A DNA stretch of 45,612 nt, counting the filler, from Jimgerdemannia flammicorona (Eukaryota): NCBI GenBank assembly GCA_003990765.1. It is 2 parts of 2 records of this genome, joined end to end, with 100 filler letters (N's around TTAATTAATTAA, not from the genome) between each part and the next. Parts side by side here need not be neighbours in the genome. Positions count along the whole stretch, not along the records: positions 22,867 to 45,612 come from RBNJ01001209.1; 1 more part is not named here. The stretch is one strand, 5' to 3'. Positions 11,467 through 45,403 of the stretch are shown here, piece after piece (position 1 is the first letter of the stretch; every line of letters starts with the position of its first letter). The position numbers and the translations under genes are program-made. The notes under the pieces were generated by a model, which was not told the origin of the DNA, ran no database searches, and saw only the letters and a program-made list of their open reading frames with translations.

Positions 11467-13021
11467 AACTTATCTAAAAGGAGACAAGACTTCTTTTAGA
11501 GTTTTGGACCTAGATGATATAATACTAGACTCATCAAAATTTAGTTCTGATCTGGTAATCACAGATGATGATATAGATACTGGTGAGGCTAGTCTTACAT
11601 TGAATAGTATAGAAATTCTCTATAACTAGATATTCATAGATATCTAAAGACTTCATTTATATATAGTTATATATCATTATTATAATACTCTTATAGATTA
11701 AAGTCATTTATAAAATCTAACTCAATTTGACTTATTAATTAATCACTAAGACTATTGATTTCTGCAGGAGTTATTTCTCTTATATTACTAATAGCATAGG
11801 GTATTTTATAGAGTAATTGGTAGATATAAACTAAAATATACTATCTAAAAATAAAGATATTATATTTATCTATAATTTCTGATAGAGTCAAGCCACTGTT
11901 TATTAGGAGTTTACCAGCTTGGTAATTCCTTAGTATTTGGAAGTGTCTTATGATTGATTATATCTTATAGCAATCTTATTAGTAGCTTGTAAAAATTACT
12001 CTATATCATAAGTATCAAGATCAATATATTTCCAGTTATACTAATATTGGTGATCAAAGATTGCTTCTCAAAGAACTTAATAGATATATTCAGAAGATAT
12101 GGACATAATTTGTTTATATTTTAGTTTTTGTTTTGGAGAATATCTGTATATTTGTATAGTAATTATTTAGATGAATATTTTCTAGAGCCAATTTGTAAGG
12201 TATTTATTTATTTATCAAATAAACTATTTTAGTATATAGCAACTATGATTTCATAGCTTATCATGGTCTAGTTTAGCTCATGAAGTTGTTGATTTTAAAG
12301 ATCTTACTAACTTCTAATATCAGAGAGCTGATAATATCAATAGCTAATTTTGATATACTCTAGTTTCTATGATATTGTAAGCACACAACCTCCAAGCCAC
12401 CAAAATCACATAGCATTCTCAGAACTAATTCAGAAACTATATGCGAGACTACAAAACAAGAGATCATCTGGTTACACAAAATATGCTAGCAAGCACAAGA
12501 ACCCACCACCAAGATATAAGAATACTAGAAGAAGTACTACAACCATAAGACTGACTCTGAACCACTATAACTAGTTTGGTATACTATACTATTACAAAAG
12601 GAAACTGAAAGTACCAAACTCAAATTGAGACAAGAAGAACCCTATCTCATCTACCAAAAGGTTCACAAACTGCACTTATCAACTCAAGACCAGGATACAC
12701 TGCAGCTATACAAGACCTCATTACTTAGTAGAAGCAAAACGCATTTGAATAACTCCATTGGCTCTATCTGTGTCACCTCCGTTAGAGAGTGACAGACATT
12801 TTATCTGAACTCAAGAAAGCCGACAACGTCGAAACCAATCTCAAGCCATCCACGTGACAGATATTATTAAAATATATAGGTTACAACTCAATATATGGTG
12901 GCACAGCCTTCCTTGACTATGTCATCATGTAAATGTCACTAATTGTGACGCGTAAAAGTGCATAAGAATTAGCAATAAACAGTTTGCTTGCTCCCTCCAT
13001 TCCAAGTATTCCACAACAAAA

Positions 13022-17508: not shown

Positions 17509-18919
17509 GAACAATTTAGGATGAGATAGGATAATAGAGTGACAGCAAGCTTCTTTAACATTGATTCCTACATTGGTGATTTCTACCAACATTGCTCATC
17601 TACAAATGTTCACATTTCTACTTTTTAACCTATTTTTCGAGTTTTAAGCAGATAATTCAGGTGTTTTTTGGTTTCTAGATAGCGGTCTGAACATTGCAGC
17701 GAGATTTGCAGTGGTTATAGCTTAGTATTGCAGTTTGGGAATTTGCATATCTCATTGAGCGGGAGTATTGAAATATGTAGGTTACAACTCGATATGGTGG
17801 CACAGCCTTCCTTGACTATGTCATCATATAAATGTCACTAATTGCGATGCGTAAAAGCGCATAAGAATTAGCAATAAACAGTTTTCTTGCTCCCTCTATT
17901 CCAAGTATTCCACAACAGATATTACTACTAAAAATTGCCTCAGATTACAGAAAATATCATTTCTGAGAGGTTCAAACCCCCAGTCGTGACATTGGGAGCC
18001 CTCGCCCTAGACGAGAATGGCCAGTTCTCACAAATACGCCAGCAGACCAAAAAAAAAGAGAACCAAGACCTGTTATCCTTGTATAACCACTGCCACCAAG
18101 GGCAGCCTTAATCTTGCAAGAGATAGAAGTAGCGACACCTTGAAACTGATAATGTCAGAAGTCAGAAAACTGCTCAGACTTTGCTAGTGATAATGTTATC
18201 AATAGTGATGTCATCAAGGACTAACCAAACAGTGCCTAAATCTATAAATAGCCTAGCAGTTATAGTATAGTTAGATTAGCCTTATATGATGTGACTGTGA
18301 ACTAACTCAGTAGTCAGATGATCTCTTGACATATCAGATCACACTTATACTATATGACTGCATTCTGACTCAGCAAGGCACTTAGTGCTACATCCATATC
18401 TAGTATAGTCTAGATAGCCCCTCACTAGTATAAATACCCCCTCCCCCAGACCTCAGAATCTGAGACTCAAATATACAAGAACATTCCTGAATACTTCCCC
18501 ACAAATATTCCTTCACACAACTACTCCTAGTATAGCAATATCATGAATAGCAAATAAATCTATTCCATAACCCATAAACCACTCTTAAGTAAATCCACTC
18601 CCTGTTAGGTCCCACTCCTAACCCCATCACGAAATTTCCTAATTGGGTATTGTCTGCAGCGATACACCAATTCAACTAAGCTGGTCTTAGTTTTTTAAAC
18701 TTCCTAAAATACAGAAAATCCTGAACATCCAGAACTAGTCCGAAAAAGGACTTTGGTTGAGACATCAACCCAAACTTGAAATCAATAAGTGTAGAGGATG
18801 TACTCTATATGAAATTGATCTTGACCATAAGAAAACAGTCTTCCAGAATATCCAGAACTTCCAGAAAACCCTTCCAGAACTACATAATAGTTACCCTAAA
18901 AAGCAACCCTCTTACAACT

Positions 18920-18931
18920 TGGTAGCAGCAG
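18920..18931 (+). promoter_or_regulatory. PBS of family B (variant copy)
   Basis: TGGTAGCAGCAG after LTR end + ACT; same position as TGGTAGCAGCGG at 45072. Compatible with a tRNA-iMet (or Leu) 3' end. Confidence 0.7.
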
Positions 18932-21417: not shown

Positions 21418-21820
21418 GCCAAATCCTTTGGATCCTCAGATGGTGGGTAGTAGTTCAGAGACTTCCTTGACTGTCAGGGTTGACTTGATTTTTTCAAATA
21501 GGATCTGGGTAATACAGAAACCAATGGAGATCTTGAAGAGTATCCAACTATGGTTTCAGATGAGAACAATAATTTCACCTGTATAATCTTCATCAATGAC
21601 TCCTCCTTCTACTGAGAGTTCTTTCAATGCTAAGCTGCTGTAACAGCATATTCTTCCAACATATTCTTCAGGGATTTGGTTGCTAATTCCTGTATAGACT
21701 TGCTTGACTTCTAGGTTGGAAACTATAGCTTCTTTAGCTGTATAAAGGTCATATCCAGCTACCTTTTGACTTTCTTTAGTTGGGGCCTTAGCAGTTTGCC
21801 TTAACTTAATAAAGTCCAGT
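21418..21820 (-). pseudogene. dut: dUTPase domain in element C, upstream of the protease
   Basis: AGYDL, GRICCYSS, GVIDEDYTGEI, ITQILFE, *GSKGFG; two TGA stops (likely from CGA); in frame with the protease. Confidence 0.88.
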
Positions 21821-22766: not shown

Positions 22767-22866
22767 NNNNNNNNNNNNNNNNNNNNNNNNNNNNNNNNNN
22801 NNNNNNNNNNTTAATTAATTAANNNNNNNNNNNNNNNNNNNNNNNNNNNNNNNNNNNNNNNNNNNN
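22767..22866. other. Artificial contig/scaffold spacer
   Basis: 44 N + TTAATTAATTAA (stops in all six frames) + 44 N. The two sides may not be adjacent in the genome. Confidence 0.95.
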
Positions 22867-22944: not shown

Positions 22945-23774
22945 GGCGTTGCAGACCTTGCCGGCCGGGCCGGTCTGCTTGGTGAAGAGCTTGTGACCCA
23001 GCATCTGCTCGGCGAACATCTTGGCCTCGGTGGGACTACAAGAGTCCGCGTTTTGGAAAGGGAGCCAGTTAGCGCTCGGAACCCAATCTTTGAGCCAGCA
23101 TAGCATTGCACAAAGAAAGGACACTCACGAGAAGATGGTCCTCACGCCGCCCTTGAGACCACTGTCGAAATGACCCTTGCCGCGACCGCCAGCTAGAACC
23201 TGAGCCTTGATGACCATGTCCTCGGTACCTGTTGTGGGTCCGTGAGGGTATTTGTAGGAGGTAGAGGCAGGTGGTGAACAATGATGGTTTGGTGGATCGG
23301 CGTCCCATGGCGTCAATGTTTATCGGCGCGTTCACGTTGCGGCCTTCGGCCGCAATCCCGGCGGATCGGAGGACAAGGACAGATCGAGCGACTCCTCGCA
23401 ACTGATTTGCAAGTTTTCTCTCTCTGCATTTCCAGCACAGTCTTCTGCTCCCGATCCTTCCCCACCCACGAGATCGCAAACCACGCCTCTTTCCCACGCT
23501 CGAATCGAACGTATAACCAGTCCCGTTTTCTACAGCATCCGCCTCTCACCCTTTCGAAACGCTCCCCCTTGCGACGCTTACCGAGCTTGGAGGCGATCTC
23601 GAAGGCCTCATTGGGTGTCTTTGCGACGGCGCCGCGCGGGGTGTTGACGCCGTATTTGCGGAGCAGATCGACGGAGAGGTACTCGTGGATGGAGAGGTGG
23701 CGTTTCTGCTGGCGAATGGCGGGACGGGCAGCCCTTGCGTAGAGGGCGGAGGCGGTCCTGAGGGACGAGAACAT
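22945..23774 (-). CDS. LSC2: Mitochondrial succinyl-CoA ligase beta subunit, 5' exons 23774-23582, 23228-23129, 23035-22945; rest lost at the contig end
   Basis: Presequence + [35 protein letters not shown] introns (GTAAGC, GTGAGT, GTACGT donors) splice in frame. Confidence 0.93.
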
Positions 23775-24685
23775 TATGGCTTCTGGTAGAGGGAGGAGTG
23801 GCAGAACGGTGGTTGGTGAGGGAAATGTTGAGGGCCATGCTAATTCCCGACGCGCGTGATTGGCCACAAGCATTTTGAAACATGGGTGTGACCTCATTAG
23901 CCATTGTCCCCTCACGACTTTCAATAGACCACTCCTTCCGACTCCTCCCTCCCCTGCCCTTCGATCCGAACCATGATAACACGCCAACCCAGCATCCGAG
24001 AATAACCGAGAAAGGGGTCATACGATTGCTCCCGAATTCGTGGCGATAACCTTGTTTCTATTCTGGAACCCAGCAGGTGTATACGAGCATCATACATGAT
24101 CCCATCATAGTCTCGTCCGGTATGCATGGACAGGGCTTTTCGGTAATAAAGAAGGCTGCTGCTGCGCACATGGTGAACATGGGGTTCAGCGGAATGTGGA
24201 AGTAGACACTTGAGTATTTATGGAGAAACTGGATGGAAGGCCTTGTCTCACTGCGTCATGAACTAGTGAAGCCCGAAATAAATACTTGGTATTATTAAAA
24301 CATGACGACGGTGGCGTCACCAGATGATGGCGATCGTGCACAGCGTGGAGGAATTATGGTGTGTAGTGCCGTGAACAACATGATGGTTTGTGATCCAGAT
24401 CAGAACCACCACGCGCCACGTTCATCATAAATGACTATGTATGGGCAAAGCTCTATATAATTAAATATCGAACCATCCTCGCCTTGCTCAGCATAATCTA
24501 CAAGTCCGAACCTCGTAACCACTGGGTCCCACACGTCGTCCTCCGACGTGGTCGTGAGGAAGAATGGCCGGTGATGGAGAGGAAAACGAACGGAGGAATG
24601 GTTTAAGAGGTACGGGGTGATCAGCCGTGACTACAGTTGTAATGACCTCGGTCAGGATCGTGGAGAACGGGTGCAATATGAATCG

Positions 24686-26182
24686 CTATATCATCCCACC
24701 CCTTGCCCCACCCTCTTCTCTCTTCCTCTCTGCGACCATCTTATTCCCCGTCAACCATCTCTCATCCCCACTCCACCCTGTCCCCCCACTACTCACACAC
24801 ACACACGCACCACTACCTCTCTTCGTCACCATCCTCCCCTCCCTCGCCCATCCCTCTACCTCCATAGCAAGACCTTCCAATGCATCTTCGTCCCAGCCGG
24901 GTCCCGGTCCGAGCTCCCTGAGGCGCGGCATCTCGAGCAAGAAGCGGCGCGCGAAAGAGGGTGAGAGATGGGAGGTAGCAAGTACGAGGGTTTCGAGCGT
25001 TGTGGTTCGGCTGGAGGCGTCGAGGAGCGGGTGGAGGGCGGTGTCGATGTGGAGGGGCGTGGTTGAGATGCGGAGCTCGCGGAGGTGGCGGCAGTGGGTG
25101 GTGATTTGCTGAAGATGAGTAGGGTGATAATGAATATACGGTTGCGAAAAGAATCTGTATATATATATGAAACATAATGAACGAAGCGATTCTTCCGCAC
25201 TCACCGTTAAACACTCCACCTCGATATGATCCGTCTCAAACACCTCAAGGTTCGTACAATACCTCGCCAACGCCCCCTTCCTACACCTCACATCCCCCAA
25301 CAACCTCACGCACCTCAAATTCGATCCACACCTCTGCGCCAACAACTCGACATGCCCATCACTCAAATCCCACCAGTCTCTCACATACAGCCTGACGAGT
25401 GACGCGACGGCGCGCGATCCACAAAATGCCGTCAGGCTCTGGGCATGGGATGCCCATTTGCCGTATTGGGCGTTGAACCTGATCTCCTCGAGCCCATCGC
25501 ACCTCGCAAGTGCGAGCATGATGGTGTCGTAGGCCCAGGAGAGTTCGACGCTTCGGAGGGATCGACTGTGCTGTTTGATCAGGTCGATGGTTGTGTCTGG
25601 GTATCCGCGGTAGGGGGCACAGTAGGTTTTGAGGCGATCACGCGGGATGGTGAGGAGGAGCTCTGCAAAGTCCTCTGTGACAGGGAAAGAGTGGACGAGT
25701 TCTGTGAGGGAGTTTCGGGAAGCTTGGAAGAGCGGTGTGAATGACTTTAGGGGGACGTTGGAGATGAGGAGGCGGATGCGGACGAGGTGCGGGAAGCGGA
25801 ATGGGGAGAAGAGGGAGACGCAGAGGGGCTGGTATTCCGGGAGGATGAGACGGCAGTCGAAGGCGTGGACGAGGTCGTGGTAGTCGAGGGTGGTGGTGGC
25901 GGCGGGTTGCGAGAGGGTGCGGGCGAGGAGTTGGGCGGTCTGTTCGGTGGTAATAGTCAGAGTGTGCCAGAGGAAACGGGCGGCAGGCGGAAAGAGGGTC
26001 TTGCAGGTCAGAGCGAGGTGATAGAAGTCCGAGTCTGAGGCGTGGGCGCAGAAGAGATCGGCGAGCTCGGGGAGGAGGAAGGGGTGGCGTGGCGGTGCAG
26101 TACGAAGTTGGTTGGGTGGAGGAGGATCGGTAGGCTTGCAAGCTTCCGTGTCCGTGATGGCGGGAGGATCCTGATGCTGCAT
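24686..26182 (-). CDS. F-box / RNI-like leucine-rich-repeat protein; probable in-frame 96-nt intron 25204-25109 and possibly another near the 3' end
   Basis: LLPELADLFC..LALTCKTLF..A..LW F-box pattern; repeated LxxxCxxLxxL. Splicing GTGAGT..TTCAG gives ECLT-QITTHCRHLREL. Confidence 0.75.
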   Translation of the reverse strand: MQHQDPPAITDTEACKPTDPPPPNQLRTAPPRHPFLLPELADLFCAHASDSDFYHLALTCKTLFPPAARFLWHTLTITTEQTAQLLARTLSQPAATTTLDYHDLVHAFDCRLILPEYQPLCVSLFSPFRFPHLVRIRLLISNVPLKSFTPLFQASRNSLTELVHSFPVTEDFAELLLTIPRDRLKTYCAPYRGYPDTTIDLIKQHSRSLRSVELSWAYDTIMLALARCDGLEEIRFNAQYGKWASHAQSLTAFCGSRAVASLVRLYVRDWWDLSDGHVELLAQRCGSNLRCVRLLGDVRCRKGALARYCTNLEVFETDHIEVECLTVSAEESLRSLCFIYIYRFFSQPYIHYHPTHLQQITTHCRHLRELRISTTPLHIDTALHPLLDASSRTTTLETLVLATSHLSPSFARRFLLEMPRLRELGPGPGWDEDALEGLAMEVEGWAREGRMVTKRGSGACVCVSSGGTGWSGDERWLTGNKMVAERKREEGGARGGMI

Positions 26183-26970
26183 CAGGGTAGGAATGCGGCT
26201 CTATGTCAGAAGGGATTTCGAGGTATTCTCGGCTCCTCCTCCTCAGGCTATGCGAGACGGAGGGCAGGAAGGCTGAGACATGGGCAGAATTCGAGCGTAG
26301 ATGGCGTTGTGGTCGATTTAGGTCCATCTGCCACGCGCGTGGCTGTCCCCACAAAGCGTCACACCAACCAGCCTTGCCTTATCATCCGATGGTTTTGATA
26401 CATAATGAACTGACTTTTCTCGTCCGTACGAGTCTCCGTCGATCGATCGATCGATCGGAGATAACCTTCGCATCTGTTCAAGCTGAGGATGAGAAAAGTG
26501 TAAAGCTAAAGAACAGATCGGGAAATAGGCACCGGCCAGCCAGACGACGCAGGCAAAGAAATCGGTCGGAACTTGTGGAGAATGCTTTCGATCAATGGTT
26601 CTGTAGATGGCAATATAAATGGCGAACGGACTACAGGGAGCCAGCCGTCGCGCCTACGCTCAATCAAATCGTGCGAAATATCCAAGAGAAAGACCTTTGG
26701 CGATCTCAAAGTACAGGCTTCACGATCGATAGACTGGGTTTCGTAAACGGCGCTTCAAGGATTGGTGCTCATCGTAAAGGTTGCGATAAAACAAACTGCT
26801 CCCGCACAACTGATCGTGATCTGCAAAGATTTATTACTTGATTCGCATGGCAAAATGAAACGAATCACCAGAACTCTATCACATCAGTGAAACTTGTGCA
26901 TTTGATTGCACGATAATTTCTAGCTACATTTAACTGCAAAATGGCACAAGTGCACCTCATGCTACCAACT

Positions 26971-28482
26971 TTAATACAACCTCCCCGGGCCAACCCCTAC
27001 AATATCCGCCATGGCGTTCACCAGATCCGCCGAATTCCCCGTCAAACCAGCCAGGTACTCCCTCATCCACTCCGTCACCACCACGAACTCTTGGTTCGGA
27101 TACGCTTGATCCACCGCCCTCTTCGCCCTGATCCTATCCTCCAACCTTATCAGCCACTCCTGTTCTCTCCTCACCATCTCCACCAAGGCGGCCTGTCTCA
27201 CGCATAGCTCGGTCGCGATGCTCCTCACCATCTCCTCGCTTCTCCCGGCGAACACGGCTTCGGTACCCCTCCGCGCGCCCTCGATCGTGACGGCCCACCA
27301 CCCGTCCTCGGTCTCGTACAAGTTGAACGTGGGGAGCATACGCTCGATCAGTGCGTCCGACGGGCCGTCAATCATCGCTTGCGCCTGTGGGTATTCCCGC
27401 ACACTCGGCCGGATCCAATCGGCTCGGAAGGCGCCCGAGCCGCGTGGGTCAAGTAGGCGCCCGTTGTCGGTGAGGTTGAGAACGAGATGCGCGCGCGACA
27501 TGAACCCAGCTGGGACGGCAAGTTGCGAGGGCTCGTGGCCGAGGCGTTCGGGGGCCTGGATCGGGGAGCGGGCGCGCAGTTGGCGGGCGCCGAGGAAGGC
27601 GAGGCTGGCGAATATGTTCTCGTGGGCGTTGCAGGTCTGAAGGGTGAGGGCGTCGATGGTAAGCTTGCGGAGGGATTGGATGAGGGCAGCAGGGTCACCG
27701 ACGTGGCAGAGGAGCATGAATGTCTTGGAGATGTCGTGCTCGCGGAACTGATAGTCTTCGTAGTTGTCAGCCGTTATGGTCACCAGGCGCGGCTGCATAA
27801 CTTGTTTCTTTCCTAGCAAGTGCGTGACGGATTTGGTGACCGTGTCGAAGTTCAGCTCTGGATCGAAGTCGCGCATCACCTGCTCGTCGATCATCCTCCA
27901 GATGTCTGTCTTGGTCTGCGCGACGAAGGCATCATTCTCCAGGTCATGTATCAAGCTCCTTGCCAGCTCCTCGCCATCCAACCTCCACTTGCCCAACATT
28001 TCATCGATTTCTGCTGCCGCCCTCCGCTGCTGCTCCTCCGCCTGCACTTGGCTATTCAACCCGAGCCCCGTCGTCACCAGGACGTCCAGCACCCGATGCA
28101 GCTGGTAATGCAACTTCAAAATCGGCCCCCAGGAATTCATCGCTGCGTCCCGCAACTGCATGGGGTTCTGCTCCGCCAGGACTTGGTCCACCCACTGCGA
28201 GTCGGCGAACGCACTGTTCTCCACCAGGTCGCGCCATCCGACCACCAGCTGTCCCTGGCAGAAACCCCAGACTTCGGCATCCTCGCGGTCGCCCGTCGCG
28301 AGGAGGAGGCTCTCGAGTTCATCTTGCACGCGTTTGAGGTCGCCCGCGGCCTGGCTCACGCGCCCGTAGTCCCGGTAGAAATTGTCCATGTGGAAGGCGA
28401 CAGCAGTCTTGTATGTTTGGATGGCATCGCGCGAGCCGGAGGCGGGGCCGGTGGGGTTGTATTCGGTTGCTGAGGCAGACAT
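26971..28482 (-). CDS. Intronless 503-aa hypothetical protein, possible papain-fold (arylamine N-acetyltransferase/transglutaminase-like) enzyme
   Basis: Long GC-rich ORF; QTCNAHENIFASLAFLG..AHLVLNLTDNGRLLDPRGSG suggests a C284-H332-D345 triad. ORF is solid; function tentative. Confidence 0.7.
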   Translation of the reverse strand: MSASATEYNPTGPASGSRDAIQTYKTAVAFHMDNFYRDYGRVSQAAGDLKRVQDELESLLLATGDREDAEVWGFCQGQLVVGWRDLVENSAFADSQWVDQVLAEQNPMQLRDAAMNSWGPILKLHYQLHRVLDVLVTTGLGLNSQVQAEEQQRRAAAEIDEMLGKWRLDGEELARSLIHDLENDAFVAQTKTDIWRMIDEQVMRDFDPELNFDTVTKSVTHLLGKKQVMQPRLVTITADNYEDYQFREHDISKTFMLLCHVGDPAALIQSLRKLTIDALTLQTCNAHENIFASLAFLGARQLRARSPIQAPERLGHEPSQLAVPAGFMSRAHLVLNLTDNGRLLDPRGSGAFRADWIRPSVREYPQAQAMIDGPSDALIERMLPTFNLYETEDGWWAVTIEGARRGTEAVFAGRSEEMVRSIATELCVRQAALVEMVRREQEWLIRLEDRIRAKRAVDQAYPNQEFVVVTEWMREYLAGLTGNSADLVNAMADIVGVGPGRLY

Positions 28483-29416
28483 TGATGGGTGTGTTTAAGA
28501 TGTTTTCATTGAGAAAAATTCGCCACTTATTTAAACATATTTAAACGTTGTTGGCATTTGTTGTCCAATTTCAAGAGTGGATGGCATTTGTTAATGGTGA
28601 CTGTCAAAGAAGGCAAAGAAGGCAAAGAAGGGCAGGAAGGTTTCCATGTGGCGTCTTGGAGACGAAGCCAGGAATCTGCTGCATGCGGAGATTCCCAGAT
28701 ATTATTGTATACATTACAAAGTCATCGTCCCTCAAAGGAATGGGCTCGTTCAACCACGTATATAGCCATAGCCACAGTTGATGTGTTTTACAAATGTGCG
28801 CTCATGATATGGCAATGTGATATAAAGACATGGTGTTCTTGACCATGGGCATCTTCCAAAGCCCCAGTCGTTTCCCACCTCCACACCTTCAGCATCTCTA
28901 GCTTTCTCGTCGTCATCCTGTGACCTCGAGGTGTTCAGCGCGCACGGCTACATCATACCAAAGATGTTCTCCGAGTTATGGGGGCACCGGACCATTCCGC
29001 GGTGGATAGACGAGCTCCAAAGCTTGGCCAACGGGAAGATCGAGGGCAGACATGTGGAGCTTGACATGCACTGCTGTCCCCCCAAACTGGTGTGGGCCAG
29101 GGGGGATCGCTACCGGCATGGTGCGATGGATGTGGACTGTCGTCTCCAACAGTGGAATCGAATCAGACCCCCAGTTAAACCAACTTATTGAATTGAATTG
29201 ATTTCAAGTTGAATAAAATGCGGAGTAATTAGTTTTCTAACCGTCATCGTGAATGGCAAATCTTTATACAAAAGGGTGTAATCAAACTATTTTTCAATGG
29301 ATGGTCGACCTTACACTATTTTCATTTTAAAAAACATTTATTGTGCATGCTATCGTCACCAGAACACTATTGTGCAAACTATCGTCACCAGAAATTGGCG
29401 TTATATATTCGCCATC

Positions 29417-30198
29417 TCATTTCCGTGTCAACACAATGGGCGTTTCGCGAGGTACGACTCCAATCCCAAACGGTATGTCCACTCCAATCGGCGCGCCCTC
29501 CAACGTCGACACTTTGAACCTCCTGACGATCTCACCTACGGCTGCCTGAATCTCCGTGGCCGCGAAGAACCTACCGGGACAGATGTGCTTATTCATGCCG
29601 AAGGTGAGGTAGCTCTTGCCGGCGCTGGTGACCGACAGCCGCTTCTTGCCCTCCTCAGTCACGTACCTCTATGGGTTGAAGTTGTTACCCTCAGGGCCTT
29701 CGTCCGTCGCGACGGACTGCTGATGGATATTGGAGGCGAGAACCGTCAGAAACCGGCCCTCGGAAATGACAATGCCGTTGTCGAACCTAATGTCTTGCAT
29801 CGCGCGGTGCGTGAGCCCGAATGGGAGAAACTCTAAGGTAGCGGAGGCACTCGAAGGATTGAGTTGGAGTGGTCCATCGTCCCAAGCTTTTCGACCGTGA
29901 GCGGTTCGTCGCCGCGTTCCTTCTCCAGCGTCTCGCGGATATCGTCACTGCTCGCGATGTGGTTCATCACTAGGGCGAAGTAGGAACCGGTAGAATGAAC
30001 AGACCCCATCGATATGGCGCGAATGAGCACTTCAATCTCCGAATTGTCCCACAGTGGCCATGTATCCGTCTCTTCATTGCGGGCCTCCATGAATGACTGA
30101 AGGAGATCGTCGGGTCTGGGACCCGGGCCGATCCAGTTACCTTCGTTGTCCATCTGTGCCCGCTGGCCGCAAAGATGGCTGCAGAAGTATAAGTAATC
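29417..30198 (-). pseudogene. Cytochrome P450 pseudogene, 3' half; 5' part replaced by repeat DNA
   Basis: GSVHST I-helix, ECLR (frameshifts on both sides), FNP*RY, heme motif FGMNKHICPGRFFA. Confidence 0.9.
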
Positions 30199-30199
30199 T

Positions 30200-31177
30200 G
30201 AGGACAAGAAACAACTGATGAAGAAGTTCCCAAACCAGAAGAACTCCCTGAACTAATTTCCTGAGATGACTTTCACTGGACACTACCAGAAGATGATGAT
30301 CTCTAGAACACTAAAGAGGGACCAAGTATAGTTGCCATTGTTCCAAGACAAGAAACAAACCAGGAAAGAGCTTTTTGGCTAGAAAGATGCTAGCATCAAA
30401 TAGTGTTCCACTCTCTCTAAGACTACTGCTATCAGTGCCACTTATTAGATCAGCAAGAAAGACAAAGACACCCTGAACCAGCATCTCCAGTAATTATTAT
30501 ACAGATAACTATATTTCAAAAAACAACCACCATACTGACAAAATGATCTTATAGACACTATACCTGTACAGAGGTACAGCTCTTAGCTACTCTTCCCCCT
30601 ATCTATGATAGGGAAAATTACTGATTTTCAAGATAATAAGAAGTTAACAACTAAAAGCAGCACCTCTAAGCAATGAGATACTGTTATTATGGAAAACACT
30701 CAAGCTGCTGAATCTATCAGCATAAGAAGATATATCTCAGTTAAGATATCATGATATATATACTCAAGAGAGAAGATGATAAAGCTAAGATTCAAAAAAA
30801 AACTAAGTCAAGAAATCTACAAAAAGAACTCTCAAAATCTATGATCTAAGAGATAATATCTTAGCTCTTATTAAATATATAATCTACTAAGGATAGATAA
30901 ATAATACTACCTAACTAGAAGAAGAGAAATTAACTATCTCTAAGACCCCTCTACTAGAGTCAGATAACTGTATCTTAATATTGAAGTATAGAGATTTATA
31001 ACTATAGAAGTCTCAGCCTAAGGATAACCTATACTTAGCAAAAATATTGTACAATATATCTTACTATACTTTAAAGCCAGACCTTCAACAAAAGCTCATA
31101 AGAAAGATATAAAGTATAATCTTTACAGTCTCTAAGATAAAACTATCAGTTCTAAAAGTATAGTACTTCTTAGTATA
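30200..31177 (+). mobile_element. Degenerate retroelement-like fragment abutting the P450
   Basis: Abrupt shift to A-rich, CpG-poor composition like the LTR elements; stop-riddled frame; no diagnostic motif. Confidence 0.4.
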
Positions 31178-31328
31178 TATAAGTATACAACCTCTAAGCC
31201 ACCAAAATCACACATCACTATCAGAATAAATCTAGAAATTATATATAAGATTATAAAGCTAAGTTAAACTGAAGTTACAAATTACAAAGCTGAGTTAACT
31301 CAAAGTCACAGAATACAAAATATATAGA

Positions 31329-31905
31329 TTGTGCTCTAAATAAGCTGATCCAGATCAGATTCAAATCCTATCTGAATTAACTTAGATGAAAAAATGAGCT
31401 AATCTAGATTAATTCAAATCAATCATTATTTTGATTTCCAAATTAGATAATTAAATATTTATATCAATAACTTGATAAATAATTATTCAATTTTGATGAT
31501 CTTAATGTTATTTGAAAGTTCTTAATAAGGTCTTTCAAATGATATCAATAATATTGAAATTGGATTATATATTGCTGAGTTATCAAGAAAAACATCTAAC
31601 TTGCTAATTTTGGAAATTTTTTAAAAGAATGTTTTTCTTAATAGCTTAGTAATACATAATCCAATTTTAATATTCTTAAAAGGCCTTATTAAGGGCTTTC
31701 AAATAATATTAAGATTATCAAAATTGGATAATTATTTATTAAGTTATTGATATAAACATTTAATTATCTAATTTGGAAATCAAAACAATAGTCAATTCAA
31801 ATTGATCCAGATCAACTTGTTTTTCATTCAAGTTGATCCAGATGAAATTCAATCTAAATCTAATCTGAATCTAATCTAAATTAAATTAACTCATTTGAAG
31901 CACTA
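31329..31905. mobile_element. Fold-back hAT-type MITE (577 bp) with 8-bp TSD TATATAGA
   Basis: TTGTGCTCTAAATAAG..CTCATTTGAAGCACTA; TSD 31321-31328 and 31906-31913; long internal inverted arms. Confidence 0.85.
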
Positions 31906-32021
31906 TATATAGAAATGGAATCTTATCTATCAGGACTAAAAGTATATATATCAAATATATAGTATATCAAAATGAAGAACCACAATAAACTGAAACCATA
32001 TCTAGACATGATCACTGAAGT

Positions 32022-34090
32022 TATAAGCACATAACCTCCAAGCTACTAAAATCACATATCACCCTCTGAACAAGTCACCAAAATCACACGTGAGCTCCAA
32101 ACAAATCTGGAAATTACCTGCTCAATCATGAAGCTGAGTCAAACTGAAGTCACAGTACACAAAGCTGAGTCAATACAAAGTCATGGAACACAAGACTTAT
32201 ATAAACAGGATCTTACCAATCAGGACCAAATATATATATACCGAGCACTGAGATGTATTGAAACAGAGAACCAAAACAAACAATAACCACAACTTTCAAA
32301 ATACACAAACATGACCACTGAGATCTATAACCACATCTGTACTGACATTTGGAATACTATTGTCAACTGAGCTATACCCCCTCTACCCCTTATGAATATC
32401 CATAGTCTAGCACCCCTTTACTTTGTGGAAGCCTGATGGAATGCTCTGAACATACTTAATGAGGTCTACCAAATTGGACAAATTTCAAGCTACTATCAGA
32501 TCAGCCACCTCTTGGAAGACATGGTCAAACACCACTATGATACAGATATTACTCAGATGTCTCAATACCAGAAGCTCATCACCTGCAAACATCAAGAACT
32601 CTTCTATGAATACAGTACCTTTATTTCCCACCTCTGAATTACTACTGCTGAAATGGTTACTATCCTGTCCTATGGTCAAATTGATGACATGATACAAGAA
32701 CTCAACCACAAGTATCTTGAGTACATACATTGAAACCACAGACAGAACCTTCCTACACCCTGATGATCATATCTTACAAATATCTCAAGTCAGATATACT
32801 ATGAAGAATGTCTATGACATAATCCAATTTGATGAAGATGAAGTAGAAGATAATGATCCCTCTGATACTGATATGACCTCAAGCCAAGGATCTCTGCCAA
32901 CCCTGATCATACCGCCAACCTTGCCAATGAACTTACAATAGTTTATAACCACATATGAGACTTATTGGAACAATGACTACTAGTACAAATACTAATCTGC
33001 ATTTACCCCTAATTACTTCAACTATAATGAAGAGACTGGAGAATACAACCTATATCTTCAGACAACTCTCGAAATCGAACCAACCACTCCACCACCTGAG
33101 TATGAGTGACATGAACCACAGCTACCAGTATACTATAACTCTGTAACTCATAGTACTGTGACTTATAGAAGGTATGCAGACAGTGAATCTGATAAAAGTG
33201 AAAATGATATACTACTCCTTTGCCTACCAATATCTTATCCAGCATACAAGACAGAAAATACTATCCTGTGGAACAGTGACAAAGTCCCAATGTATTACTA
33301 TCTCAGCCAATAAGGAGAAGTAATCCATGAACCACTCTTTCTGAATAACTACTTCATCAGAGATGATACAATCGATAGTAATGTTATCGAAGACTACCCA
33401 GACAGCATCTAAACTTATAAATAGCCTAGCAGTCATAGTATAGTTAGATTAGTCTTGTATGACATAACTGTGAACTGACTCAGCAGTCAGATGATCTCTT
33501 GACATATCAGATCACACTTATACTATATGACTGCATTCTAACTCAGCAAAGCACTTAGTGCTACATCTATATTTAGCATAGTCCAGATAGCCCCTTACTA
33601 GTATAAATACTCTCTTCTCCAGACCTCAGAATCTCAGACTCGAACAATCTGAATACAACTCCTGAGCACTTCCCCACAATATCCCTTTATACAACTACTC
33701 CTAGTATAGCAATATCATAAATAGCAAATAAATCTATTTAATAATCCACAAACCACTCTTAAGTAAATCTGCTCCCCATTAGGTCCCACTCCTAACCCCA
33801 TTATGAAATTTCCTAATTTGGTATTGTCTGTAGCGATACACCAATTCAACTAAGCTGGTCTTAGTTTTTTGAACTTCCTGAAATACAGAAAATCCTGAAC
33901 ATCCAGAACTAGTCCAAAAAGGGACTTTGGTTGAGACATCAATCTGATCTTGAAATCAATAAGCGTAGAGGATGTACTCCATATGAAATTGATCTTGACC
34001 TTAAGAAAACAGTCTTCCAGAATATCCAGAACCTCTAGAAAACCCTTCCAGAACTCTGTAATGATTACTCTAAAAGGCAACCCTCTTATA
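32022..34090 (+). repeat. Solo LTR of family B (2069 bp) with 5-bp TSD GAAGT
   Basis: Colinear with 43005-45068; termini TATAAG..CTTATA (mutated TGTAAG..CTTACA); GAAGT at 32017-32021 and 34091-34095. Confidence 0.93.
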
Positions 34091-34134
34091 GAAGTCTACA
34101 ACTATATCTGTATTAATATTTAGAATACTATTAT

Positions 34135-34736
34135 TAGTACTTCTAATGAGTCAATTTAATCTGGATTGGATTCAGATTGATTCAGATTGAATCTCATCCA
34201 GATCAACTTGGATGGGATTCAAATTCCATCCAGATGGATTCAAATCAACCATTGTTTTGATTTTCAAATTAGACAATTAAATGTTTATATCAATAACTTA
34301 ATGAATAATCATCCAAATTTGATGATGTTGGTATCATTTGAAAGCCCTTAATATGGCTTATCTAATGATACTAAGAATATTGAAATCAGATTATATGTTG
34401 CTGAGTTATAAAGGAAAACATCTAAATCACTGATTTTGGAAATTGTTTGATTTGCTGATTTTGGAAATTTTGTCAAATGAAATGGTTTTCTTAATATCTC
34501 AGCAATGTATAATCCAATTTTAATATACTTGATATCATTAGAAAGACCTTATTAAGGGCTTTCAAATGATATCAAGATTATCAAATTTGGATAATTATTA
34601 ATCAAGTTATTGATGTAAACATTTAATTGTCTAATTTGGAAATCAAAATTGAATTCATCTGGATGGGATTTGAATCTCATCTGAGTTGATCTAGATGGAA
34701 TTTGAATCTCATCCAAATTCCATCCAGATTGACTCA
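34135..34736. mobile_element. Fold-back MITE related to 31329-31905; right terminus deleted
   Basis: Starts TAGTACTTCTAATGAGTCAA; shares inner arms with the 31.3 kb MITE; ends TTGACTCA, then host LTR resumes. Confidence 0.78.
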
Positions 34737-36179
34737 ACTGAGCCATAGCACTCCTACCTCTTATGAATATCTATAACCTAGTACTTCTCTATTTTATAGA
34801 AGTCTATTGAAATACTCTGAACATACTTAGTGAGATCTACCAAATCAGACAAATCTCAAACTACTACTAGATTAGCTATCTTCTGAAAGATATAGTTAAT
34901 CACTACTATAATATAGATACATATTACTGAAATATCTCAATACTAGAAACTCATTACCCATAAATACTGAGAACTCTTTTATGAGTATAATATCTTTATT
35001 TCCTACCTCTAAGTTACTACTACTAAAATGATTATTACTCTAATCTATGGTCAAATTAATAATATAGTATAAGAACTCAATGATAAATATATTGAGTATG
35101 TCTAAATTACAGACAAACCCTTCCTATATTTAGATAACCATATTCTACAAATACTCTAAGTTAAATATATCATGAAGGATATCTATAATATAATCTAATT
35201 TAATAATAATAAAGTAGAAGATAATGATTTCTCTGATACAAAAATAACCTCCAGTCAAGGATCTCTATCAACTCTGATTATTCTACTAATATTACTGATG
35301 AACTTATAATCGTTTATAACTATTATAAGACCTATTAGAATAATGACCACTAATATGTACTAACCTATATTTATATCTGACTACTTTAACTATAATAAAG
35401 AGACTAGAGAATACAATCTGTATCTCTAGACAATCCTTGAGATAGAATTAACAACTCTATTTCTTGAATATAAGTAATATAAAGAATAGCTATCAGCTTA
35501 CTATAACTCTACAATATATAGTACTATAATCTATCAAAGGTATGTTGATAGTAAATCTAATAAAAGCAAAGATGATACATCCCTTCTCTACCTACTAATA
35601 CCATACTTAGCATATGAGACAGATAATGACATTCTGTGAGATAATAACCTAGTTCCAATATATTACTATATAAATAAATAGAGAGATATAATCTAAGAAC
35701 TATTCTTTCTAAATAACTACTTTATCAGAGATAATATCATTAATATTAATCTTATTAATAAGTATTCAGATAGTGTTTAAACCTATAAATAGCTTAGCAG
35801 TCATTAGTATAGTTAGATTAGTATTATACTATATTACTATATATTGACTCAGCAGTTAGTCAATCTCTTAATATATCAGTTTATATTTATACTATATAAC
35901 TACATTCTGACTTATCAAGTACTAAAGTACTATATCTATATTTAGTATAGTTTAAATAGTATCTCATTAGTATAAATACTCTCTCTTAACATTCTTATCT
36001 ATTGATCTTTTAGATGTAAAAATTCTCACCATTCTACAGTTACAGTTATCTACACATATAGCTATTAAAAATTTTAGTAAATTTTAATTAAATAAAGACT
36101 AAATTTATATATCCAAAAAATATGTAATATATAATAATAATAGTGTGGCTCAAGGGTTTTTACTATTTATATATAGAAT

Positions 36180-40753: not shown

Positions 40754-43004
40754 TTTTTTTTTTTTTTTTTTTTTTATTGTCATTTAGTCTCTGCTTTTTT
40801 TTTTTTTATAGTCACTTAGACTCTGCCATTTATTTCCATTTATTAATGATTTTACAGTTTTACCCTCTCACTACCTGATCCCCATAGGAGAACCACTTTG
40901 CCTATTCATACATACAAACAAAAACTACTTTCGCACCCACAACCCCAACCCTCCCCCCACTCTGCCTACAGATTTATTCTACTAAATGATGTCTTCAACC
41001 CCCTTTCAACCCCCAACCCAGCCACCAGCCCATCAAGGTGTCTTCCATAAGGCTACACCACCTCATCAGCCTAACCTTGGAGCCAAGTTTCCTCCTATTC
41101 TCAAATACAAATAGCCAGTAACTGGTCAGCTCCACCCAAATGGCCAAAGCCCACCCTAGCATCAGCCATTCCTTCCCCACTCCCCCCTCTAGTCTATCCC
41201 TTAAGTCCTCTCATCACCCCTGTACCTCAGCTCTCCTGTGCACTATTCCCAGATGATCCCCAATGTTCTGCCAAAAGGAATGAAGTACCTCACACTCTCC
41301 TAGCCAATATTCAGGTGTCTGTATATATCCCTCTTCCTGCCCTACATTATAACACTCCTTACAGTTGAAGTAGCCCCCCTCAATAAGGTGACCAGAGCAG
41401 AAGTTGAGCATGACATTTTGCCTCAGCACACACCACCAGACCACCCAGTACTTCAGCAGCAACCATCTCCATACCTTGGTACTCCAGGCCTATATGCTAT
41501 GCTAGTCTCACTCCTCACTGATTCCTACACCCTGCCAACTACTAGGCCACAGATCCTGGCCTGGTCTCCATTGGCATTTGACCCCATCACCAATGTCAAA
41601 CTCAAGTAAGAGAATGCTACCTAGTAACACTCAGTCCTATCTCCACATCACTGAATCCCAAGCCTCCTCCCCTTCATTTCCCTACCACCTAATCCCAATG
41701 CAGCATACCCCCTCTGCCACTCCCCACCAGAAGCCTTTGTACCATAGTTGCCCAGAGTTCTGAAGGCCCACAAGTGCTAGGAGATCACCCATCAAACCTC
41801 TCAGAGAGGACCTCATCTCTCAGACTTTCTGCAGTAGTGGAACCCAACCACCTCCTCTCAACTCCAATACTCTCTTCAGCCACCAAGCTCTCAAGCAGTA
41901 CAGCCTCTTAGAAAAGTTGATCAGCCTAAGTCCCCCACTCGCCACCAGTAAGGACAAGATCTTCCAGTTGATCTGACTCTGCCTTCCAGCCCAGATCCAC
42001 CCCTTGGCCAGCTTCATCAATCGCTTCACCACCCAAGCTAGGAAGTTCAGATGATAAGCCAGATACCACACCTTCAGCAGCCAATAGACATTCAGAATCG
42101 AAATACAGCCCACCAGAGACAAATGACGGCCCCCCCAACTCCTCAGGGCCTCCTCCCAAATGCCAATCCACTGCTTCCACCAAAGTCTGGGCAGAACTGA
42201 CCCATACACTGACAGATAAATACCCAAGTACCACACTGCCTCACCAGCAGAGACAATCATACCAATAATCTCCCTGCCCACTAGACCATTGCCTAATACC
42301 ATTGTTTCACACTTATGCCAATTAAGCCTAGCTCCAGAGTTCATCTCATACCACTTTACTGTCTCTTTGAGCTCCTCAATATCCACAACTGATCCCAGAC
42401 TAACCACCATATTATCTGCAAATACCCCTACTTTCCACCTGATGTCAAAGATAGAAAGCCCCACTATCTTCCACCATATTCTGTCCATGAAGGGCTCTAG
42501 AGATAAAGTATACAAAATGGGGGACAGTGGGTCCCCCTGGGGCACCCCCCTACCCAGGAGAAATGCTACCCCTCTATGTCTATTACACATAAGTGCTGCC
42601 CTACTTCCTTCCAGTAGACTGACCATGACAGTCCTGAACTGTCACGGGACCCCAATCCTATCCAAAACTTTTGCCAACCAGACCCATCACACCTGGTTAT
42701 AGGCCTTCTCCTGGTCCAAAAAGACCAGACACCCATCCAGTCTACTGGCTCGCACCCCTTCAATAACTTCATGTACCCATGCTGTACTATCCCTGATGAG
42801 CTGGCCTCCAACAAAGCCCCACTGCTCCTCACTCAAGACTTGTTAGGCCACCTTTTGCAATCTTGTGATCACCACTTTGGTAACCAACTTTCTGTCCATA
42901 TCCAGTAGCATAATCAGCCTCCAGTTCTTCCAGTCCTCTTAGCTTCCTTTGTTCTTATAAAGCAATGTCACCAACCCTAGATCCTGTTCTCCCACCCATC
43001 TCCC
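40754..43004 (-). mobile_element. L1/Tx1-clade LINE, ORF2 RT and C-terminal region with poly(A); cut by the family B LTR
   Basis: NWRLIMLLDMD, DQEKAY, GVPQGDPLSPILY, FADN, SGARLNWHKC, YLGI, CKEC..YWLGEC; T-tract 40754-40775. Confidence 0.92.
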
Positions 43005-45068
43005 TGTAAGCGCACAACCTCTAAGCCACTGAAATTACACATCACTCTCTGAACAAGCCACTGAAATCATACGTGACCTCTAAACAAATCTGGAAATCAC
43101 CTGCTCGATCACAAAGCTGAGTCAAACCAAAGTCACAGTACACAAAGCTGAGTCAATATAAAGTTATGGAACACAAGATTTACACAAACAGAATCTTACC
43201 AATCAGGACTAAATGCATATATACCGAGCACCGAGACGCATCGAATCAGAGAACCAAAACAAATAACAACCACAACTTCCAAACACACAAACATGACCAC
43301 TGAGGTCTATAACCATATCCGTGCTGACATTTGGAATGCCATTGTCAACTGAGCCACACCCCCTCTGCCCCTCATGAATATCCATAGCCTGGTACCCCTC
43401 TACTTCGTGGAAGCCCGATGGAATGCTCTGAACATGCTTAGCAAGGCCCACTGAATTGGACAAATCTCAAGCTACTACTGGATCGGCCACCTCCTGGAAG
43501 ATATGGTCGAACACCACTATGATACAGACATTACCCAGATATCTCAACACCAGAAGCTCATCACCTGCAAATATCGAGAACTCTTCTATGAGTACAGTAC
43601 CTTTATTCCCTGCCTCCGAGTCACTACCAGTGAAATGGTTGCTACCCTGTCCTATGACCAAATCGACGACATGATACAAGAACTCAACCACAAGTACCTT
43701 GAGTACGTCGAAACCACAGACAGAGCCTTCCCACACCCCAATGACCATATTCTGCAAATGCCCCAAGTTGGATATGCCATGAAGAACATCTACGATATAA
43801 TCCACTTCGATGAAGATGAAGCAGAAGACAATGATCCCTCTGATGCCGACATGACCTCTAGCCAAGGATCTCTGCCAACCCTGATCACACCGCCAAACTT
43901 GCTGATGAACTTGCAACAGTTCATAACTACATACGAGACTTATTGGGACAATGACCACTGGCACGAATATCAACCAGCTTTCACCCCCAATTACTTCAAC
44001 TACAATGAAGAGACTGGAGAACACAACCTGTACCTCCAGACAATCCTAGAGATCGAACCAACAACTCCACCACCTGAGTACGAGTGATATGAACCACAGC
44101 TGCCAGCTTACTACAACCTCATGACTCATAGTGCTGTAACCTATAGAAGGTATGCAGACAGCGAATTTGATGAAAGCGAAGACAATATACCCATTCTTCG
44201 TCTACCAACACCTTATCCAGTATACAAAACAGACAATGCTATCCTGTGGGATGGAGATGAAGTCCCAATGTATTACTACCTCAGCCAATAAGGAGAAGTA
44301 ATCCGCGAACCACTCTTCCTAGACAACTACTTCATCAGAGATGATGTAATCGATGGTGATGTCATCGAGGACTACTAAGACAGCGCCTAAACCCATAAAT
44401 AGCCTAGTAGTCATAGTATAGTTAGATTAGCATTGTACAACATGACTGTGAACTGACTCAGCAGTTAGACGATCTCTTGATATGTCAGATCATACTTGTA
44501 CTATGTGACTGCATTCCAACTCAGCAAGGCACTTAGTGCTATATCCATATTCAGCATAGTCCAGATAGCCCCTCACTAGTATAAATACCCCCTCCCCCAG
44601 ACCTCAGAATCTCAGACTTGAACAATCCAAATACAACTCCTGAATACTTCTCCACAATATCCCTTCACACAAATACTCCTAGTATAGCAATATCATGAAT
44701 AGCAAATAAATCTATTCCATAACCCACAAACCACTCTTAAGTAAATCCACTCCCTGTTAGATCCTACTCCTAACCCCATTACGAAATTTCCTAATTGGGT
44801 ATTGTCTGCAGCGATACGCCAATTCAACTAAGCTGGTCTTAGTTTCTTAAACTTCCTGAAATACGGAAAATCCTAAACATCCAGAACTAGTCCAAAAAAG
44901 AACTTTGGTTGAGATATCAACCCAATCTTGAAATCAATAAGCATAGAGGATGTACTCTATATGAAATTGATCTTGACCATAAGAAAACAGTCTTCCAGAA
45001 CATCCAGAATATCTAGAAAACCTTTCCAGAACTACATAACAGTTACCCTAAAAAGCAACCCTCTTACA
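43005..45068 (+). repeat. 5' LTR of family B (2064 bp), best-preserved copy
   Basis: TGTAAG..CTTACA termini; TATAAATACCCC at 44580; followed by PBS; same extent as the TSD-flanked solo LTR. Confidence 0.93.
43293..44390 (+). pseudogene. U3-encoded ORF of family B (~365 codons, unknown function)
   Basis: One frame from MTTEVYNHIRADIW to DDVIDGDVIEDY with no frameshift, five internal stops (3 TGA, 2 TAA); includes the tracked ORF 43503-44087. Confidence 0.75.
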
Positions 45069-45071
45069 ACT

Positions 45072-45083
45072 TGGTAGCAGCGG
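45072..45083 (+). promoter_or_regulatory. PBS of family B
   Basis: TGGTAGCAGCGG 3 nt after the LTR end. Confidence 0.75.
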
Positions 45084-45403
45084 TTTACAATCCAATTCCG
45101 CTTCAAGATGCTTCCTCACCCCACTACAAACCCCTCTGCAAATTCCTACAAGTTGGTATAAAGCCCAACCTCTGAACTGGAATTTATCCTGAACTATCTG
45201 ACAATCTGAAGAGAATTGAACCTGACGTACAAGGACAATTTGACCTCCACACCTGCAACAAGTGGGATAAACTTCATTCAAAAAAAGAAGTACTCAAGTT
45301 AAACCAGCAAATAGGCGAAACCACCTTTCACCGGTAACATTCAGGTGACACAAGATTTGGACAACACTTTCTGCGAAGTTTTTGGTAAAAAGCTACTATC
45401 AAC

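Follow-up and report, generated by a model that had tools for sequence, protein, structure and literature searches.

A 2.06-kb long terminal repeat with a formerly selected open reading frame, probably an accessory gene in U3

The DNA analysed here is a stretch of 45,612 nt (referred to as the window) that contains four copies, A to D, of one retrotransposon family's long terminal repeat (LTR). Copy A encloses a sense open reading frame (ORF) of 365 codons, which lies wholly within the limits of the LTR and is also recognisable in copies B and C, the former being a solo LTR. Our overall reading is that this is the LTR of a genome affected by repeat-induced point mutation (RIP), probably that of an ascomycete, and that the ORF is likely to be an accessory gene situated in a swappable module of the distal part of the unique 3′ region (U3). 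We describe below the LTR and its ORF, the traces of selection on the latter and the modular structure of the family, before considering how such a gene might be expressed, which other explanations might account for it and how it compares with known systems.

An open reading frame within an LTR

The unit between 43005 and 45068 is a genuine LTR of an LTR retrotransposon. It starts with TGTAAG (43005-43010) and ends with CTTACA (45063-45068), the terminal TG..CA inverted ends being present, and it is colinear with solo copy B, to which it is 86% identical over 2065 nt in the self-comparison of the window. The ends of copy B have undergone RIP-type change (TATAAG..CTTATA), and a 5-bp target-site duplication (TSD), GAAGT, is found on both of its sides (32017-32021 and 34091-34095). 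Copy A is followed by a primer-binding site (PBS) of the tRNA primer type, TGGTAGCAGCGG, and is for this reason considered a 5′ LTR. When up to one mismatch is allowed, this sequence occurs at only two sites of the window, 45072 and 18920 (the latter with 1 mismatch), each behind the 3′ end of an LTR copy; scans of the window returned neither tRNA genes nor Rfam RNA families. A comparison was also made with contigs from four sequencing runs of four studies (at least 80% identity to the window; 3976, 452, 315 and 441 matches). In these outside contigs, a polypurine tract ending in AAAAAGGGGAGAGT directly adjoins the TGTAAG of the LTR start at 43005 (run X3, 4 contigs), and a purine-rich sequence ending in GAAGGGGAGAGT precedes the start in one contig of run X2. 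The tract is known from these outside samples only, as no 3′ LTR of this family falls within the window. Together, the TG..CA ends, the 5-bp duplication, the PBS and the polypurine tract identify the 2.06-kb unit as an LTR. The limits that a first-pass annotation of this DNA had set from the ends, the PBS and the colinear solo LTR with its TSD are, consequently, borne out.

The ORF, whose ATG has an A at -3, contains five internal stops in copy A (43350 TGA, 43452 TGA, 44085 TGA, 44289 TAA and 44376 TAA) ahead of the terminal TAA at 44388, and its frame runs without frameshift relative to P0002 and P0003, two outside proteins described below. Counting the terminal codon, there are 6 stops in the ORF frame, versus 17 and 27 in the remaining plus-strand frames. 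About 17.5 stops would be expected from composition over 43293-44390, and a plus-strand frame with at most 6 stops arises in 0.35% of 20000 mononucleotide shuffles. The non-ORF frames of this interval have 17-27 stops, except for the codon-aligned antisense frame, which has 4. As the latter is just as open, openness alone leaves the strand unsettled.

For four of the five internal stops, a single C>T or G>A substitution is sufficient. At the TAA of 44376 a C>A transversion is required in addition: the codon here is CCA in copies B and D and TCA in copy C, and P0002 reads Pro. At 44289, nearly all other contigs carry a C that gives CAA (depth 483.5 of 514.4 in run X1, 25.6 of 25.6 in X3 and 21.4 of 21.4 in X2). 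The earlier description of a single frame, broken only by stops explicable as C>T, therefore stands for the frame and for four of the stops, but not for the one at 44376. By tblastn, the ORF is found in copies B (32 kb; 76-77% amino acid identity, split between two frames) and C (35 kb; 52-53%), so the claim that the same ORF is present in both is correct; it has 8 stops and a 4-nt insertion in copy B, and 20 stops and 3 frame-breaking indels in copy C. What had been proposed about its survival after solo-LTR formation holds for the DNA, but not for an intact ORF, as the damage in copy B illustrates.

This damage is of the RIP type. Within the ORF, copies A and B differ by 157 transitions and 14 transversions, and along the aligned LTR 73 C/T differences lie before A and 34 G/A differences after T, that is, they are concentrated in CpA/TpG. 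Copy C has a TpA/ApT ratio of 1.20, a (CpA+TpG)/(ApC+GpT) ratio of 0.74 and a GC content of 26%. Transition-dominated CpA/TpG decay and raised TpA/ApT are the marks of repeats mutated by RIP, a Pezizomycotina-type defence; the index thresholds applied are those of general knowledge. The three copies of the window that carry the ORF are all dead relics with such decay.

Evidence for past purifying selection

The selection tests rest on transversions, which RIP does not produce. In the ORF frame, 8 of the 13 transversions between copies A and B and 20 of the 49 between A and C are synonymous, versus 14% expected (p = 1e-4 and 4e-6, respectively). Among the six frames, the excess is seen in that of the ORF alone, with a weak echo in the antisense frame that shares its wobble positions; for the codon-aligned antisense frame, synonymous transversions number 0 of 13 (A/B) and 6 of 49 (A/C), which is no excess. 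Third-position transversions affect 8 of 134 four-fold codons versus 2 of 231 other codons in the A/B comparison (p = 0.006), and 18 of 128 versus 9 of 223 in the A/C comparison (p = 0.0009). The rate is, hence, 3.5- to 7-fold higher at four-fold codons, which rules out a merely positional mutation bias. When the window copies are compared, three-base periodicity is absent from the non-ORF parts of the LTR.

A codon-position bias, whose absence the first-pass annotation had named among the grounds for refuting its reading, is present among the window copies, in the form of a frame-specific excess of synonymous and four-fold transversions. As all the copies compared are LTR copies, selection must have acted while the gene rode in the LTR, and purifying selection during the spread of the family argues for an accessory gene of the element and not for noise. 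The ORF, which is found in three of the four LTRs of the family in the window (A, B and C, but not D) and shows this synonymous excess, is conserved across copies as a gene of the element would be. We consider it very probable that the frame is a formerly selected protein-coding gene inside the LTR, including the solo LTR, a reading that the selection tests support well.

A gene on the opposite strand was also considered, comparable to the antisense brtn discussed below. The candidate, a 185-aa ORF at 43467-44024 on the minus strand, in the antisense frame with 4 stops, was rejected as a shadow frame, since it lacks a synonymous excess.

Four copies of the LTR and their modular structure

The copies and their parts are listed in Table 1. 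When copy B is removed, its flanks rejoin as the RIP-type-mutated first ORF codons of copy C, which indicates that the solo LTR was inserted into an older third copy. Copy C is very AT-rich, and its similarity to the LTR stops just past its TATAAATA, the motif considered below as a candidate promoter. The two foldback elements of about 550 nt that copy C also carries (31353-31905 and 34135-34713) are in opposite orientation and 76-78% identical; they have long internal inverted repeats, with arms of 130-176 nt, and resemble miniature inverted-repeat transposable elements in appearance.

Copy D is split by a nested copia-type element, whose TSD, GATAT, is found at 12860-12864 and 17918-17922. 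Its excision joins copy D into an LTR of 1481 nt, followed by the same PBS and leader as copy A. Only the last 730 nt of this copy (18186-18914) had been recognised previously. The first ~80 nt of copy A resemble the LTR start at 12376, which is that of copy D and not of the nested copia element. In blastn, copy D matches copy A only over positions 1-83 of the latter (74%) and between positions 1333-2062 of A and 753-1481 of D (90.15%). The middle ~670 nt of copy D are unrelated to copy A and, in the three plus-strand frames, hold no stop-free run longer than about 75 codons, although the last ~17 codons of the ORF are kept as a vestige. Since copy D keeps only the ends and this vestige, the distal U3 appears to be modular, with the ORF belonging to one module, and, since unrelated sequence takes the place of that module in copy D, the gene would be dispensable for transposition as such.

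As for the copia-type element itself (12865-17917, TSD GATAT), it has LTRs of ~153 nt (12865-13018 and 17766-17917, 93% identity) and matches the Pfam families Retrotran_gag_2, Pol_BBD, gag_pre-integrs, SH3_retrovirus and RVT_2.

Table 1. Features of the LTR family in the window (R, repeat region; U5, unique 5′ region)
Feature	Position	Strand	Basis or remark
Copy A, full LTR of 2064 nt, 5′ LTR	43005..45068	+	TGTAAG..CTTACA ends, match to solo copy B, PBS at 45072
5′-terminal segment common to all LTR variants, probable integrase-recognition end	43005..43087	+	74% identity over 86 columns, versus 12376
Swappable distal-U3 module, with promoter-like motifs and ORF codons 1-348	43088..44336	+	missing from ORF-less variant D
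Two TGAGTCA motifs in a tandem duplication of ~30 nt, candidate sites for upstream activation of the ORF	43118..43155 (43118, 43149)	+	motif positions
TATATA, candidate core promoter of the ORF	43218..43223	+	70 nt before the ATG
365-codon ORF with 5 in-frame stops	43293..44390	+	translation, selection tests, outside proteins P0002 and P0003
Proximal U3, R and U5	44337..45068	+	90% to ORF-less variant D
TATAAATA, candidate genomic-RNA promoter	44580..44587	+	in copies A, B, C and D
AATAAA, candidate polyadenylation signal	44705..44710	+	the only AATAAA of the LTR
Leader common to both 5′ LTRs	45069..45333	+	pairs with 18915-19180, inside the 90% match
PBS (tRNA primer type), TGGTAGCAGCGG	45072..45083	+	3 nt past the end of the copy A LTR
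Copy B, solo LTR, TSD GAAGT	32022..34090	+	sits in copy C, between ORF codons 5 and 6
Copy C, heavily RIP-type-mutated LTR	31178..35985 (31178-32021 and 34091-35985)	+	split by copy B and two foldback elements
Copy D, left part, ORF-less LTR variant	12376..12864	+	start TGTAAGCAC; copia TSD GATAT
Copy D, right part	17923..18914	+	PBS then at 18920; from 18186, 90% to A 44337-45068

The encoded protein and its relatives

Read with X at the stops, the protein of copy A has an isoelectric point of 4.28. Its 357 residues include 60 Asp+Glu versus 16 Lys+Arg as well as 32 Tyr, and the stretch of residues 141-362 is the most acidic, aromatic and proline-rich. The highest Kyte-Doolittle mean over 19 residues is 0.98 for this protein (P0001) and 0.97 for P0002, that is, neither has a hydrophobic or transmembrane segment. 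To judge from its sequence, the protein is an acidic, tyrosine-rich orphan that should be soluble and, according to the structure models, is possibly largely disordered.

When 1.84 billion representative proteins were searched exhaustively with phmmer, four matches were obtained at E≤1e-3, two of which are real (P0002 and P0003). The other two, P0004 and P0005, were set aside as spurious, as they are internally repetitive and match over short stretches. Word-indexed protein searches (5.8 billion) returned one match at ‘near’ lengths and one at ‘shorter’ lengths. P0003 (128 aa, 85% identity) is open over residues 1-128 from the same Met and has Arg at both early TGA positions. P0002 (247 aa, 63% identity) is open over residues 115-361, with two gaps of two residues each, and it ends at the position of the TAA at 44388. 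Each of them is encoded on one short contig (998 and 1180 nt). Of the 231 and 590 pattern matches inspected in two protein-pattern scans of metagenome contigs, not one held up in tblastn.

Regarding families and folds, the ORF protein matches no Pfam family at the curated cut-off in searches at E≤0.01 and E≤1. The family RAMP reached 17.6 bits on a 194-aa open stretch and 15.8 on the X-read ORF, with a cut-off of 27, and was taken as noise. The best match of a profile search against the PDB had an E of 0.15. There is likewise no similarity to any gag or pol gene that the window's other elements carry. That the ORF might be an ordinary gag/pol fragment, a possibility the first-pass annotation had raised against its own reading, was rejected on these grounds: neither Pfam nor phmmer, which gave only two real relatives, nor the transposon genes of the window reveal any such likeness.

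Position of the ORF and its possible expression

The ORF ends 190 nt upstream of the TATAAATA at 44580, which agrees with the distance of about 190 bp to a TATA box noted previously. In copies B (33416) and D (18243), a second TATAAATA is found directly past the ORF stop, 186 nt upstream of the conserved one, and copy A has CATAAATA at the corresponding place (44394). What copies A and D share is the terminal 83 nt, the 245 nt upstream of the TATAAATA at 44580, everything downstream of it, the PBS and the leader. This is the pattern expected if the genomic RNA starts past 44580, and it argues for a location of the ORF in U3. We, therefore, regard the ORF as likely to lie upstream of the genomic-RNA start, in true U3. 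Of the earlier claim of a gene inside U3, the part concerning the LTR is directly observed, while the U3 placement depends on this comparison of variants.

The module may also have a promoter of its own, a suggestion that we consider plausible but tentative. The two TGAGTCA motifs, which may be AP-1/Gcn4-type sites, are both kept in solo copy B (32135 and 32166) and absent from the ORF-less variant D. Together with the TATATA, they stand 175-70 nt upstream of the ATG and would supply the U3 module with its own promoter. Given this promoter-like set, each LTR, be it 5′, 3′ or solo, is proposed to be a small, self-contained unit from which the ORF is transcribed. The resulting mRNA would pass through the genomic promoter TATAAATA (44580) and end at the sole AATAAA (44705).

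The protein could conceivably serve the element in trans; transcription or chromatin would be its most plausible target, and the C-terminal half, which is acidic and aromatic, the part through which it acts. A role as a transactivator or anti-silencing factor, as the first-pass annotation had suggested, is nonetheless unlikely on present evidence. Still somewhat less likely is the full proposal in which every LTR, solo copies included, is a gene cassette, and a trans-acting acidic protein boosts the transcription of the family or blunts repeat silencing. If this were true, the LTR would be a fungal, convergent counterpart of the retroviral U3 accessory genes, in which gene dosage rises with every insertion and outlasts the loss of gag-pol.

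A word-based search listed 20 runs from 14 studies, none of them annotated as RNA, with a highest share of words of 0.24. The four runs compared are contig sets and, as such, cannot show transcript starts or levels. Contigs of run X10, which is RNA by guess, pile up at 44629-44992, one of them with adapter sequence at 44633, and no inference was drawn from them.

Alternative explanations

The most direct challenge to the U3 placement is that the gene might belong to R and the 5′ leader. According to this explanation, which can be likened to the upstream additional ORFs of some plant elements, the TATATA at 43218 would be the sole promoter, genomic RNA would start at ~43250, and the ORF would be the first cistron, present at both RNA ends. 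The TATATA and the two TGAGTCA motifs, 70-175 nt upstream of an ATG with A at -3, are what one would expect in this case. However, R and U5 would then reach about 1.8 kb, which is, from general knowledge, far from the usual architecture. Moreover, variant D lacks that promoter region and yet shares, at 90%, the 245 nt before TATAAATA and the sequence downstream, with the same PBS and leader, which points to the downstream promoter as the one that both variants have in common. We consequently judge this possibility improbable. We give about the same low credence to the ORF being a passenger, that is, a gene of the host or of another mobile element that was captured into U3 by template switching and is carried passively, without benefit. 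U3 is modular here, copy D having unrelated sequence in place of the ORF module; for the fungal element crapaud, passages of one report describe U3 halves that are modular and recombine (PMC10787394), and gene transduction by LTR elements is treated as known in parts of another source (PMC7264820). Nevertheless, no homologue outside the LTR family was detected among the 1.84 billion representatives or in the word-indexed 5.8 billion, and passive cargo should decay at the neutral rate, in contrast to the synonymous excess in the LTR copies.

It could be argued as well that there is no gene at all, the openness being due to a T- and G-poor strand and the outside proteins being artefacts that gene callers produced on this repeat. 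The equal openness of the codon-aligned antisense frame (4 stops), the lack of a fold or family for the protein, and the fact that the database holds only two such proteins, each from one short contig, would fit this explanation. It is, however, very improbable, given that the synonymous excess is specific to the ORF frame, the transversion rate is 3.5- to 7-fold at four-fold versus other third positions, the non-ORF parts of the LTR have no periodicity, the gaps of P0002 are all in-frame over 247 residues at 63% identity, and such openness arises in so few shuffles. Least credible of all is an explanation in which the 2-kb unit would be a small mobile element in its own right, with copies that merely adjoin pieces of a retrotransposon. 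Although the window shows no repeat pair around gag-pol, two independent copies are each followed by the same PBS and 266-nt leader, a polypurine tract lies upstream in the outside contigs, and the 5-bp TSD and TG..CA ends are those of an LTR.

Several points, nonetheless, weigh against an accessory gene in U3. A full-length intact ORF is seen nowhere: copies A, B and C have 5, 8 and 20 internal stops, and P0002 and P0003 cover only part of it. Codon 20 (43350 TGA) is a stop in A, B and C alike, and two further stop positions are shared. Such stops are either parallel RIP-type hits or an inheritance from a still-mobile master with a broken 5′ end, and, if inherited, the start would be a later Met. 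The structure models give no support for a folded domain, with an AlphaFold mean pLDDT (predicted local distance difference test) of 30.3 and every residue below 50; the fold check that the first-pass annotation had advised, hence, yielded no confident fold. The Atlas model of P0002 has a pLDDT of 0.39, no feature match and a best TM-score of 0.30. In addition, variant D shows that this type of element can exist without the gene. The window stops 544 nt past copy A, and the LTR pair and gag-pol of this family lie outside it. The candidate promoter motifs are consensus matches read by eye, and the expression of the ORF, its transcription start and its poly(A) site are all predictions from sequence. 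The host is probably a fungus, a conclusion based on the RIP-type mutation only; an Atlas query with a 506-aa host ORF from the neighbouring sequence returned no match.

Neighbouring sequence

The leader of copy A leads into sequence that, past about 45333, departs from that of copy D; it is GC-rich and contains an open-ended Gly/Arg-rich ORF from 45404, whose 69 aa have no match among longer proteins. At 45322, outside contigs take the copy D version (two contigs of run X1 and one of X2). The internal regions of ORF-bearing and ORF-less elements may differ, or copy A may have been rearranged past 45333. Directly upstream of copy A there is a reverse transcriptase (RT) fragment on the minus strand (41820-42836; RVT_1, E=1.4e-9), with motifs that by eye resemble those of long interspersed nuclear elements. 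Its GC content is about 49%, it shows little RIP-type decay, and outside contigs stop matching at 42938-42939.

Other mobile elements are also present. The window begins inside the left LTR of a gypsy-type element (1-7358; LTRs at 1-171 and 7188-7358, 96% identity) that has a dUTPase domain between protease and RT. A RIP-type-mutated gypsy relative, with RT-like and dUTPase-like stretches, lies on the minus strand behind the leader of copy D (19543-22139). Runs of N (22767-22810 and 22823-22866) stand at the border between this repeat-rich block and a GC-rich gene block (23000-30200), in which we found an ATP-grasp_2 exon and two ORFs of ~505 codons without a Pfam family.

Comparison with known systems

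LTRs are deemed non-coding and masked before gene prediction, and a gene inside an LTR would, therefore, be systematically overlooked. In the open-licence full-text literature, supplements not covered, we came across no report of a fungal retrotransposon whose LTR contains a protein-coding ORF, in agreement with the first-pass annotation, which did not know U3 ORFs as a described feature of fungal elements. LTR-borne genes have so far been described mainly for a few vertebrate retroviruses, and the present one is probably a fungal case. If it is real, LTR retrotransposons beyond vertebrate retroviruses can use U3 to house an accessory gene, which each element then has twice and which outlives the element in the form of solo LTRs. 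Likewise, the swapping of U3 modules, known in fungal elements as promoter variation, could move whole genes, and an orphan under selection in a genome that runs RIP would be a candidate transposon-encoded regulator or counter-defence factor.

ORFs that lie wholly or partly in U3 are known from mouse mammary tumour virus (MMTV; sag), foamy viruses and lentiviruses. MMTV sag, a superantigen ORF exceeding 300 codons, occupies the U3 of the viral LTR and lies upstream of the genomic promoter. It is accessory and dispensable for reverse transcription, each provirus has it twice, solo LTRs keep it, and its product is a type II membrane glycoprotein. The ORF described here resembles it in being a sense ORF of more than 300 codons inside the LTR, also present in a solo LTR and, as far as the comparison of variants indicates, upstream of the genomic promoter. 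By contrast, sag belongs to a vertebrate betaretrovirus, whereas we are probably dealing with an intracellular retrotransposon of a fungus. Furthermore, the ORF protein has no hydrophobic segment (maximum 19-residue mean of 0.98) of the kind that a type II transmembrane protein has, and no sequence relation to Sag, as Pfam gave only the sub-threshold RAMP. The tas/bet genes of foamy viruses and nef of the human and simian immunodeficiency viruses are accessory as well, being located at the 3′ end and extending into U3, and Tas has an internal promoter and an acidic activation domain. By analogy, Tas may be the closest counterpart of the mechanism proposed here (own promoter, acidic protein). 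Nevertheless, tas/bet and nef begin in the internal region and overlap U3 in part, whereas in the present case the LTR encloses both the candidate promoter and the ORF in its entirety, and no homology was detected between the ORF protein and these foamy-virus and lentiviral accessory proteins.

A second group of comparable genes is that of the additional ORFs (aORFs), known from the plant elements Grande, RIRE2 and Retand and from Boty of Botrytis (brtn). The available excerpts of PMC7264820 assign them to the internal region, in most cases to the part between pol and the 3′ LTR, and describe them as family-specific, of unknown function, without homologues outside the elements and conserved like element genes. 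The ORF of this LTR is similarly conserved and has no homologue outside elements, with only two relatives among 1.84 billion representatives. Unlike the aORFs, as far as those excerpts go, it is inside the LTR limits (43005-45068), not in the internal region, and it is present in a solo LTR too. According to parts of PMC7264820, PMC8365987 and PMC4227169, brtn is antisense, between pol and the 3′ LTR; the ORF in question is sense, and the antisense frames carry no selection signal.

The modular structure has its nearest parallel in crapaud of Podospora, a RIP-affected LTR family with diverged, recombining 5′ LTR halves and a common 3′ half (PMC10787394). In the passages of that report available to us, the variable half is treated as promoter/enhancer, and the ORFs mentioned are gag and pol. 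As in crapaud, the U3-side module varies here (A, B and C versus D) and the 3′ part is common; unlike in crapaud, one of the modules is a coding gene of 1.1 kb. Finally, there are LTRs that hold a functional unit beyond promoter and terminator. The Cassandra terminal-repeat retrotransposons in miniature have LTRs with a 5S-like sequence. In retrozymes, the LTRs contain hammerhead ribozymes, as described in part of PMC9695139. The LTR family of the window resembles both in carrying such a unit, with the difference that their cargo is RNA and the cargo here would be a protein gene.

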